NCBI GenBank assembly: GCA_951406725.2
Contig: OX597825.1
Coordinates: forward strand, 56,420,001 to 56,484,000
Reading direction: 5' to 3'
DNA length: 64,000 nt
From: Octopus vulgaris
Taxonomy: Eukaryota
Position numbers and translations under genes: made by a program. Positions within the stretch are counted from its first letter, which is position 1. Each line of letters opens with the position of its first letter. Shown here piece after piece: positions 4,460-48,449 of this stretch. The notes below the pieces were generated by a model, which was not told the origin of the DNA, did no database searches, and saw nothing but the letters and a program-made list of their open reading frames with translations.

Positions 4460-5230
4460 TATATCCGATGGCCGATTCTAGGTGCATAGTGGTGCAAAGA
4501 TGAACCTAAATTTTATTCTATACCCTCGCCCCCTTCATCAAGGAAGATTCGGTTGTTAAGTTTACAAGTTGTTATTAGCTATTGTGAAATCCGTTGCTGA
4601 CAACCGTTTATAAAGAGCTACATTTATTACTCTAGCAGATGGCTTTTTAAAAATATTTTTATACATAGCAGATGGAGTTGATATTAAACTAGTATTAAGA
4701 AGAAGCTATAAATAACATGAGAGGTGGTGGCTTGAAGAAGGCCTCAGCCAAGTTTTATATTTCAGATTTAATGGAATCATGGTCTTATTGTGTAGTTATG
4801 AAGATGCTTAAGAGCTAAAAGATACTTGTGTCAACAAGAAAATCTATTCAACATTGAAGAGTTTTGCATACGCAGAATAGTACGAGATTCGCTAATACAA
4901 AGATTACATTTACGCGTGCGTCAATTATAAGCGGGGTACTTCTGTTACTATTGACCAAGATAAATTATACTGTATATTTTGCGCTTTAAGGTTGTGAATA
5001 TGCGTTGCTAAAGATGTAGATAATTTGGTTTTAGTATTGATAAAATAACTTATATGTGCGCGGTATCTACGCTTAAATCTACAGTACTCCCTACATATAT
5101 CAGTACTTGGGGTTGTGCATTTGTATATGACATTTTTTGCGTAGGCAGAATCCTTCGAGAGGGCATAAATTGAGCACACGTTGATTGGAAGTTTTCTTTT
5201 ATTATTATATATAGAGATTCGCCCTAGTGG
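4460..5230 (-). pseudogene. 3' fragment of a Penelope-like element (GIY-YIG region and 3' UTR with a degenerate HHR at about 4463-4545)
   Basis: ORF 4925-5374 contains NVIYKCT...FKRRYRAH...STSLATHIHNLKAQNIQYNLSWSIV, followed by a C-x2-C motif. Downstream on the same strand: tcc-TTGATGA-aggggc...gcacct-aGAAtcggccATC-gga. Confidence 0.7.
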
Positions 5231-5486
5231 GTTTAATCCCGGTCGACAAGTCATCGGCAGGGTTAAGTCCAAGTCTGAGACTACAACACAACCGGACTGG
5301 ATGACTCCGCCGGAACTAGCATTCACCACTGGGCGATCAGGATTTCGAAGATATTTCCATCCCTCAAGAACCACCTAGCATATGAGAGCTAGCAGCAGCC
5401 ACGGCGCCACCAGCCCTCGGATTCGTTAGGGGCGCCGTCCAAGGATTCACACGTTCCATCCTTGGCATTTGTTATCATTGTTATAT

Positions 5487-14059: not shown

Positions 14060-14870
14060 AGTTATTATTAAAATATCTCGTTTATTCAGTCCCAAGAGTT
14101 CCTTAGATGTTTTGAAAGAGAATATATGGAATAATATTTTGAGCCGTTAATATGAGATCTGGTCTTAAAAAGGAACTTCTATTTGATATGGTGTTGACGT
14201 TTGCCTCCTTAAGTCTCCAAATTAATACCGTGAGGGTTATTATGTTTTCTGCTCGAGATGCCTAAAGCTAGAAAGATAGTTGTTTTATTTAGGTTTAAAT
14301 TTCCCATCATGGATCCTATATAGCGTTTGGTCTCTGTCCGGCCGGTGCCGTAGCTTGCTGTTACTTCTGTAATATAAACAATGGAATATATATCGCGTTA
14401 CCAGCCCTAGAGAATATCTAGGTTTATATCTACTGGTGCATCCTGGAATTGTCCGAGTCTTCGGTTGCTTATCGATGTAGTTCTTTACATTATGGGATAG
14501 AAATATGCAATTTTAGTTCAGTCTATTAGATATTTTATCATACCTAAGAGTGAGACTCTTCTGCCTATATTTTTCCTAGCATTTAAGAAGAAACCCAGGT
14601 CGAACCATATGATAATGCGAGATCTATTTTTAAATCTAGATTGTTGAGAAGGCGGAGGAGGATTATCACAGATTTTATCGGTGAAGCTGCTTTCCAGCAA
14701 TGCCTTATTATAAAATGGGGTAGTCTTTTCTAATATTTTTCTAGATGAAACAAGGCATGTGATTCTACGGATAATGTTAGGAATTAAGTTCTTAAATACA
14801 ATATGTGGATAGTAAGAGTTCTTATTTATTTTACATTTTCCTTTATAAGAACTTATCTTGAGTTAATATA
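14060..14870 (-). pseudogene. Decayed Penelope-like element, thumb/linker and GIY-YIG
   Basis: Minus-strand translation gives INKNSYYPHIVFKNLIPNIIRRITCL..FYNKALLESSF..KNRSRIIIWFD..KNIGR, then SIVYITEV...TKRYIGS (GIY/YIG pair). Confidence 0.75.
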
Positions 14871-21356: not shown

Positions 21357-21483
21357 GAGCACCCCCTTTAGTCGACCACATCGACCCCAGGAAATATTCT
21401 TTGTAAGTCTAGTACTTATTCTATCGTTCTCTTTTGCTGAACCGCGACTTTTCGGGGACGTATGTTAGTGTTATGGCGCAGCG

Positions 21484-21553
21484 CGGTCACTGATGAGAAT
21501 TTCGTCTAGAAATTATTTCATTTGCTAAAAAATTTGAAACCTTGGTTTGACCG
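21484..21553 (+). ncRNA. Type I hammerhead ribozyme motif, intact core
   Basis: cggtca-CTGATGA-gaattt...aaattt-GAAA-cc(tt)gg-TT-tgaccg. 6-bp stem I, GUU triplet. Confidence 0.8.
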
Positions 21554-22186
21554 GAATAAAATAACAAGGTAAAAGTTTTTAACTTACATTCTTTTTAGAT
21601 TTTGTTCTTAAATGTGGTTTTGGTCGTTTTGACTACTTCTTCGAGCGTGTAAAACTGCCTATATAATGTGTTTAAAAGTACATTATATATATATATATAT
21701 AATAAATATATGCATGTATGTATGTACATATATATATGTATGTATGTATGTATGTAGATATAATGTAATATATATATATAAACATACACTTACACAGACA
21801 CGTACGCTCACACATACAAAGATACACACACACACACACATATATATACATATACATACATATTTACATATACGTACAGTTCTACATTTAAGAGATGAGT
21901 AATTATGTGCATTATTTACATTATTTACAATTGACGGATATTTGTCATTTGTTTAGGATTTGGCATTTTGTTTGTTGCAAGAGAGGCCCACTTAGAATTT
22001 TCTTCTGGTCGAGTAGCCCATCCCGCTCAAAAGGTCCCTGAATAAGGATTGTTTAAAGATGTTGAACGAACCACCCGTGTTTCCAAATGTGAATTATCCA
22101 AACCTCTAAGAATTCCTGTCAACATACGGCTATGATGCTCCCCCACTATTTCTTCTCATGATCAGAGATGCACATATATATGTGTG

Positions 22187-46760: not shown

Positions 46761-46927
46761 GGTAAGGCGATGTAGCGCTATGGAAGAACCGTAGTTAAAC
46801 TCTCAGTTTGATAATAATACGAGTGAGGAGTCTAATGCGGGTCTTGTATGAGCATGTATATGTTAAATAAAATGAGACAACAAAGCCAAGGTTGTGTGGA
46901 ATTTTCAGGATATTATGTATATATATG

Positions 46928-46988
<61 letters not shown>

Positions 46989-47108
46989 CAATATAAGGAG
47001 TGGCCCTAATAGGCCATTCGACTCATTAGAAAGAGCAGCCAAACTCAAATCGCTAAATAGTTGTAATTCTGAAACTGAAAGAGAAATAAAAACATTTACC
47101 CTTTTTCA

Positions 47109-47203
47109 TCTCTGGACTATGCATAGTTTCGACAAACTTTGGTAAACAAATTAATTAAATTAAATTAAATTTATTTATAACCGGCGTCTCTCGTCAGCAG
47201 AGA
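47109..47203 (-). ncRNA. Type I hammerhead ribozyme (downstream copy)
   Basis: tctctg-CTGACGA-gaga...tgtc-GAAA-ctatgcatag-TC-cagaga. Confidence 0.85.
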
Positions 47204-47577
47204 AGCCGAGGACGAGTATATGTCCACGAGGCGACGGCAAAGAAGCCTCCAGTCTATATGCTCTAAATTTTCAAAATCCACTGCCACCGCGCGGTCTTCT
47301 CAGCAGCAAATATAAACTGCTGATTTAATTTCAAACTTAGCCAAAAAATCATTAATTAATAAATATAAGGGTAGCAAAAAAATTCTAGAAAAATTCTCCG
47401 CTACCAGCGGTCTAGTGAGAAAGAAAAGATAGTCAAAAACTATATAATATACATTCAACAACATAAGGAATGGCCCTAATAGGCCATTCCACTCACTAGA
47501 AAGACCAGCCAAACTCAAACCGCTAAATAGTTGTAATTCTGAAACTGAAAGAGAAATAAAAACATTTAGCCTTTTCA

Positions 47578-47672
47578 TCTCTGGACTATGCATAGTTTCG
47601 ACAAACTTTGGTAAACAAATTAATTAAATTAAATAAAATTTATTTACAACTGGCGTGTCTCATCAGCAGAGA
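47578..47672 (-). ncRNA. Type I hammerhead ribozyme (upstream copy), fully canonical
   Basis: tctctg-CTGATGA-gaca...tgtc-GAAA-ctatgcatag-TC-cagaga. Stem III actatgcatagt is a perfect 12-nt palindrome. Confidence 0.9.
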
Positions 47673-47802
47673 AGCCGAGGACGAGTATATGTCCACGAGG
47701 CGACGGCAAAGAGGCCTCCAGTCTATATGCTCTAAATTTTCAAAATCCACCGCCATCGGTAGAGGAGAATTTTTTCTAGAATTTTTTTGCTACCCTTATA
47801 TT

Positions 47803-47895
<93 letters not shown>

Positions 47896-47921
47896 TATTA
47901 TATACGCTCCTAAATGTGTAA

Positions 47922-48209
47922 AAGAAGAGGATAACTAGATCCAGCCGAAAAGCCATACGGAGAGAAGGGCTAGACATACAACTAGCCCACTACGGCCCCT
48001 CTCTGAGAGGACAACTCACTAAAAAACAAATAAGGGATAGCAATCAATGTACACTCACAAACTGTCCCATCCGTGACACAGATTTATGCCAACGGGTAAA
48101 TGCTGTGTATAGAATACAATGTAACGAATGCAGCAAGTTCTATGTGGGTAAAACGGCAAGACCGTTACACGTCCGCATCAAAGAACATCTGAACACGAGA
48201 GCTTCCTAG
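47922..48209 (+). pseudogene. GIY-YIG endonuclease fragment of a second PLE lineage (absent from the ORF track: no start codon)
   Basis: Stop-to-stop frame: RKAIRREGLDIQLAHYGPSLRGQL...CTLTNCPIRDTDLCQRVNAVYRIQCNECSKFYVGKTARPLHVRIKEHLN. Confidence 0.85.
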
Positions 48210-48408
48210 AAAACCGATTATAACAGCGACTCCATCTAAGAATATCGGAAGAAGGAATACAATTCCGAAATATCACATCAGACTATGGATAACTAAATTA
48301 CAACAGGTAAATAGCCCATTGCCTATATTATAGTGCATCGTTGTACCATTCAAAATTTTTTATTCTTTACAAACAATACACAATGCTTCAAGCGAACTAC
48401 AATACTCT

Positions 48409-48449
<41 letters not shown>

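Follow-up and report, generated by a model that had tools for sequence, protein, structure and literature searches.

A 64,000-nucleotide stretch of Octopus vulgaris DNA (assembly GCA_951406725.2, contig OX597825.1, positions 56,420,001 to 56,484,000 of the forward strand; hereafter the window) carries on its minus strand what is probably an insertion, 1.66 units long, of a dispersed ~470-nt hammerhead repeat that encodes no protein, copied into a (TA)n microsatellite by a Hydra-clade RT/endonuclease that likely primed at two sites. The element fits a non-LTR retrozyme, i.e. a non-autonomous Penelope-like element (PLE), and was likely moved by the intact Hydra-clade PLEs of the same genome. The element itself is no surprise: hammerhead-bearing non-autonomous repeats of animals have already been described, and animal non-LTR retrozymes together with their PLE origin are in print (PMC7229834; 10.64898/2026.07.22.740005).

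Two type I hammerheads (HHR1 and HHR2) were located by motif scan as direct repeats on the minus strand of the window, with predicted cleavage sites 469 nt apart, as the first-pass annotation had proposed. Both follow the type I order of CUGANGA core, GAAA, UH and stems I, II and III, and both have a 6-bp stem I (tctctg/cagaga) and, in stem III, the 12-nt palindrome ACTATGCATAGT, which that annotation had also picked out. The locus is laid out as follows.

47578 to 47672, minus strand: HHR1, type I hammerhead (motif scan, constrained fold, covariation)
47672 to 47667 with 47583 to 47578, minus strand: stem I of HHR1
47666 to 47660, minus strand: core CTGATGA of HHR1
47659 to 47600, minus strand: stem II region of HHR1, 60 nt, followed by GAAA
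47596 to 47585, minus strand: palindrome of HHR1, with C17 at 47584
47109 to 47203, minus strand: HHR2, laid out as HHR1, with core CTGACGA at 47197, C17 at 47115 and a G-G mismatch in stem II
47584 to 47758, minus strand: first unit, 5'-truncated, unit positions 295-469, stopping at the first of the predicted cleavage sites
47115 to 47583, minus strand: one full 469-nt unit between predicted cleavage sites, GC 35.8%, fold z -5.6
46983 to 47114, minus strand: 3'-terminal piece, stopping at the S end (+132 past the cleavage site), then (TA)n
47467 to 47490, minus strand: predicted hairpin 1 (fold), with its end 14 nt ahead of the S (short) end position at unit +131
47370 to 47405, minus strand: predicted hairpin 2 (fold), stopping 15 nt before the long (L) end position at unit +229
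47355 to 47452, minus strand: optional tail of ~97 nt, from the S to the L end position (end mapping, 66 insertions)
47758 to 47807, plus strand: inverted arm, unit positions 179-227, with hairpin 2 and the long (L) 3' end (BLAST, fold)
46910 to 46984, unstranded: (TA)n target, lower flank
47797 to 47904, unstranded: (TA)n target, upper flank

The strict hammerhead pattern occurs twice in the window and in none of 200 block shuffles. Both hammerheads had been called intact, which is exact for HHR1 but not for HHR2, whose third stem II pair is a G-G mismatch (GAGA/TGTC) found in 2 of 60 hammerheads of the family. The active fold lies 0.6 kcal/mol above the local minimum for HHR1 and 6.9 kcal/mol above it for HHR2, and within the whole transcript the active folds are 11-23 kcal/mol less stable than the minimum-energy fold. 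The 60-nt stem II region of the two hammerheads, a feature absent from the first-pass annotation, likely accounts for their being missed by Rfam: the five matches to the element at E<=10 include no hammerhead, and over the whole window only microsatellite matches appear among the 150 of 322 matches listed.

The 1.66 units of the locus include two complete hammerhead cores. Its direct repeats (47758-47453 and 47289-46970) are 94-95% identical. They differ at 14 of 288 sites, near the family average of 3.9%, which makes this copy probably neither a recent insertion nor a source copy; a 469-nt period is absent among the matches listed by Tandem Repeats Finder. The inverted internal segment reported earlier at the 5' end is present at a length of 46-50 nt rather than 40 (96% identical to 47361-47405 by BLAST), with its 3' end facing outward into the upper (TA)n, and (TA)n does flank the element on both sides. 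The earlier view that there is no credible ORF also stands, since neither of the two stop-to-stop frames of >=100 aa that overlap the element has a Pfam match. The locus combines a lack of protein-coding capacity and a GC content below the 45% of retrozymes with tandem units bearing one type I hammerhead each.

The surroundings are rich in related debris, and three PLE-type insertions share the (TA)n site of the element. A decayed, nearly full-length Hydra-clade ORF (~46640-44140, minus strand) lies just below the lower (TA)n on the same strand as the element and shares no sequence with the unit. On the other side, between two (TA)n runs and adjoining that of the element, is a 5'-truncated PLE fragment (47904-48410, plus strand) with a GIY-YIG domain (Pfam E 3e-5) of the CCHH type, belonging to another PLE group. 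Elsewhere in the window a 5'-truncated copy of a further related family, ~65% identical to the sister unit described below, lies at 21455-21690 (plus strand) and has one hammerhead (core at 21490), a damaged palindrome and an S-type end in (TA)n. Further Hydra ORF debris is found at 17-586, 4822-5254 and 14671-14829, and a degenerate hammerhead-like stretch at 43410-43330 (minus strand) follows a duplicated segment at ~43740-42980.

Across the 2.8 Gb of the genome searched, there are 744 exact copies of the 16-nt stem III motif (control 1) and 208 of a 22-mer version (control 0). Identity among the best 29 full units averages 91%, and both the layout and a unit of ~450-490 nt are retained in subfamilies at 69-87% identity; unit size and layout also persist in a sister family at 63-67% identity (4186 candidates; L141-L170, with 2 of 30 loci dropped as duplicates). 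In the sister family the third core position is mostly U rather than C and the stem III palindrome has 8 nt; the family may be less active, and Hydra matches occur in 2 of its 30 loci. Arm pairs that are nearly identical within some insertions (1 of 236 sites different at L031, 0 of 115 at L048) suggest recent activity or conversion. A single insertion at L045-L047 has been copied along with its flanks into a local tandem of ~1.5 kb. Family-like assembled contigs were found in four public runs, contigs of this kind carrying no strand, end or circle information. By eye, the unit has a GT at +14 and a pyrimidine tract and AG near +175, which would suit an intron; no GT-AG joint was seen in the run contigs.

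The ribozyme stems appear to have been under selection. Among 30 copies, 97.3% of stem cells are paired and 19 double changes are seen as against 6.1 when shuffled (0 of 500), and a further 19 copies of greater divergence show changes on both sides of three stem I pairs. These counts were made among related sequences and therefore correspond to about six independent changes. Compensatory change thus backs stems I and II, while stem III is invariant, in part because the copies were picked by its motif. In addition, the cDNA passes the cleavage site without a scar, an observation towards which the motif-picked set is biased, and this requires that the template was either an uncleaved multimer or a religated circle. 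For the family as a whole the chances of a circular template appear about evenly balanced.

In the classical retrozyme cycle, which the first-pass annotation had in view for this locus, both hammerheads would cleave, perhaps as a double hammerhead formed through the palindrome, and the 469-nt monomer would be circularised to serve as template. Such a cycle would be compatible with Hydra-driven copying into (TA)n and would add further steps to it; covariation in the stems, scar-free junctions and insertions of up to ~2.5 units (locus L231) favour it, as does a double-hammerhead fold that costs 12.3 kcal/mol versus 23.1 for two monomers, and circles have been demonstrated for other animal retrozymes (PMC7229834). 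Rare variants common to the tandem copies of one insertion also number 47 in direct pairs against ~0.4 expected, although many of them occur in rare, under-sampled subfamilies that inflate the count and could reflect lineage or gene conversion, and the window locus has none. However, same-strand motif pairs 446-486 nt apart number only 22 in the genome against the 744 motifs, so that most copies are unable to release a monomer, and the full core is present in both copies in only 8 of the 22 pairs (by eye); L233 and L247 carry undamaged pairs. HHR2 is moreover the damaged member at the window locus, only one of nine predicted dimers cleaved in vitro in the work of 10.64898/2026.07.22.740005, and cleavage was dispensable for insertion in the experiments of PMC11167929. 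The full cycle running from this locus is accordingly conceivable but doubtful, and production of a 469-nt circle from it would be a similarly tentative proposal.

Evidence on how the copies were inserted comes from their ends, which were mapped in 66 insertions taken, following the order of the genome, among the first 100 motif matches listed (70 loci minus 4 duplicates). Arms end at S (+131) or L (+229) past the cleavage site in 74 of 88 mapped cases, (TA)n adjoins 70 of the 88 mapped ends, and a hairpin is predicted 14-15 nt before each of the two end sites. Hairpin 2 is kept in the subfamilies and the sister family, and hairpin 1 is only partly conserved across subfamilies. Just over half of the insertions (34 of 66) are inverted with their 3' ends outward, and wherever both ends of these could be classified they comprise one S and one L end: 22 of 22 are S+L, with no S+S and no L+L (p <= 2e-7 against 0.5), and the remaining 12 of the 34 have one end at neither site. 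The window copy is itself S+L. The 32 non-inverted insertions end at S in 22 cases, at L in 4 and elsewhere in 6. Inverted sister insertions are S+L in 15 of 19 cases with no L+L, in a set that was selected for an L end. The family as a whole shows the partial tandems, 5' inversion, optional tail and microsatellite target of a non-autonomous PLE, which bears out the earlier assignment to a non-autonomous, hammerhead-bearing element of PLE type.

In 10 of the 22 S+L insertions the two arms are mutually non-contained, even when whole-unit shifts are allowed, and such non-nested pairs cannot be made by fold-back of a single cDNA. Taken with the S+L rule, this speaks for separate, independent priming at each of the two DNA ends. 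A Hydra protein would bind the unit RNA in trans and its endonuclease would cut the (TA)n, after which one DNA end would prime at S and the other at L, and the two cDNAs would meet head to head to give the inversion; were only one arm kept, the outcome would be a simple 5'-truncated copy, mostly with an S end. The rule could instead be the product of a single priming, after which fold-back synthesis or endonuclease resolution of an intermediate took place, and for this there are precedents in the ascription of the tail to EN-mediated resolution (PMC8557442) and in a proposal of self-priming (PMC3846280); the 12 of 22 arm pairs that are nested could be fold-backs, and junctions at L192 and L206 are symmetric. 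Single priming is nevertheless unlikely, given the non-nested pairs and the two initiation sites that were mapped in vitro for another PLE (PMC11167929).

The case for two-site priming by a Hydra-clade enzyme is strengthened by the autonomous elements of the same genome. Many uninterrupted Hydra-clade ORFs of 730-1090 codons are present, intact ones at L082 and L123 among them, with the RWK/RW, DKT and CxCX5C marks that define the clade (PMC8557442, section 11), and among the loci sampled they form at least six families (L081-L140, L171-L190), several with near-identical intact ORFs and asparagine-rich inserts between RT and endonuclease; Pfam recognised neither of two intact ORFs submitted to it. 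The hammerheads of these families have a stem II region of 47-60 nt and an 8-nt palindromic stem III, and the ends of the families lie in (TA)n at a shorter and a longer distance from the cleavage site, with a tail of ~70-160 nt between. Of their same-family inverted insertions with both ends mapped, 11 of 12 are short+long, the exception being the short+short L090 (3 of 15 loci, whose two ends came from different families, are omitted). The motif TTTTGCTACCC / TTTTGCT(A/G)CCC before the long end is common to the unit and to Hydra families C and D. A hairpin before the ends of the autonomous families is clear at some long ends and weak at short ends, and is not uniform.

At the DNA level a parent was sought among Hydra candidate loci scored as the best 150 of 5902 and the best 150 of 2124. 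The unit is a terminal repeat at none of 100 Hydra-ORF loci (L061-L140 and L171-L190; 20+20+40+20), nor does it resemble the pLTR of an autonomous family at any of them; the matches at L061 (the window), L062, L124 and L175 are independent insertions rather than pLTRs, and a tail-plus-ORF-start pattern gave no matches in the search for an autonomous parent. Conversely, with flanks searched using Hydra-type proteins, Hydra matches occur near 2 of the 66 sampled insertions and neither is joined as a pLTR, so that the copies joined to a PLE ORF that the earlier annotation had taken as the mark of a detached pLTR were not encountered. That annotation had left the choice between arrays of the unit and the pLTR of an autonomous PLE; the family is instead dispersed, at no more than ~2.5 units per insertion and with no long arrays seen. 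Without a DNA-level parent in these 100 loci, the Hydra link rests on shared architecture. At L142 (oriented 1820) the long end of a sister copy directly abuts, with no (TA)n between, a Hydra ORF that is 5'-truncated near residue 75, and the junction shows 4-nt microhomology; this single case represents a template switch or an insertion, and the pLTRs of the adjoining Hydra family do not match the unit.

The missing parent, the CCHH-type fragment at the same (TA)n and the report that Naiads likewise target (TA)n could all point to mobilisation by a PLE outside the Hydra clade or by a LINE. This is rather improbable, since the long stem II, the palindromic stem III, the two-end layout and the TTTTGCTACCC motif are shared by the unit with Hydra families of the genome, the sister copy at L142 is fused directly to a Hydra ORF, and Naiads are without canonical hammerheads. 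The reading of the copies as pLTR fragments that have become detached from an autonomous PLE and lack an independent existence is largely refuted and very improbable, for although most copies are shorter than one unit, like 5'-truncated PLE ends, and the locus lies 73 bp upstream of the decayed Hydra ORF on the same strand, longer copies continue into a previous unit and not into an ORF, the adjoining remnant is unrelated in sequence and set apart by (TA)n, and the unit is retained across 63-98% identity.

Among titles and abstracts, with subscription papers and supplements outside that scope, no published account was found of the family or of a two-site priming rule for PLE inversions; related elements may stand in the hammerhead table of PMC8557442 (file S2) or in repeat databases. 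What is new is the 22 of 22 S+L count together with the non-nested arms, which yields a testable model of two-site priming, and the short unit RNA and the intact Hydra ORFs of a single genome form a ready in vitro pair. Hammerheads with stem II regions of 47-60 nt are also the rule in the sampled Hydra families, and the two in the window escape Rfam. A bolder and more speculative proposal, with the odds against it, is that the family is a long-lived, ORF-less RNA-circle lineage with an extended-stem-II hammerhead that parasitises Hydra elements, and that a dimeric enzyme priming both ends of a (TA)n break at two hairpin-marked sites is a general rule of PLEs. If this were true, dimeric two-site priming would explain why inverted pLTRs carry a tail at just one end, and the 470-nt unit would be a minimal substrate for the PLE integration rule.

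In the twin priming of L1, both DNA ends prime on the RNA to give a head-to-head inversion. The window family differs in that both priming sites are fixed and internal, and because its arms frequently have sequence in common, either a second template or strand displacement would be needed, unlike in L1 twin priming.

Animal non-LTR retrozymes (Cervera and de la Pena 2020, PMC7229834; Li et al. 2026, 10.64898/2026.07.22.740005) resemble the window family in their non-coding tandem unit, one type I hammerhead per unit, low GC and coexistence with PLEs, and the unit falls within the 51-972 bp range of the latter work, in which retrozyme and non-autonomous PLE are equated and an element counts as active when two full consecutive units are found as a tandem repeat. 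Unlike those retrozymes as described in these sources, the window family forms dispersed PLE-style insertions with inversions and tails and no long arrays (at most ~2.5 units), has a 60-nt stem II region and has a circle that is conjectural; and whereas many retrozymes of the preprint match a known pLTR, no parent was found for this family in the sampled Hydra loci.

Closer in its priming is the Poseidon element PAc of Anolis (Frangieh et al. 2024, PMC11167929), in which two internal start sites downstream of the hammerhead define the tail and targets are AT-rich. The purified protein of that PLE, a predicted dimer, both cuts and extends the two strands, starting at the two internal RNA sites that bound the tail. 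PAc is, however, autonomous, its start sites, both in an AC-rich stem-loop, are separated by a few tens of nt, and in that paper's treatment of them the two sites are not tied, as here, to the two ends of inverted insertions.

The Hydra clade itself (Craig et al. 2021, PMC8557442) shares the (TA)n target, partial tandems, 5' inversion, optional tail and a hammerhead upstream of the 3' ends. That one of two inverted pLTRs bears a tail was already recorded in PMC3846280 and PMC8557442, and the latter named the origin of the tandem and inverted structures of PLEs as an open question. The window family departs from the clade as described there in having no ORF, no alignable pLTR among 100 loci, and a tail of ~97 nt as against 30-40 bp (PMC8557442); the hammerheads of the Hydra ORFs in this genome are, for their part, built like those of the window family.
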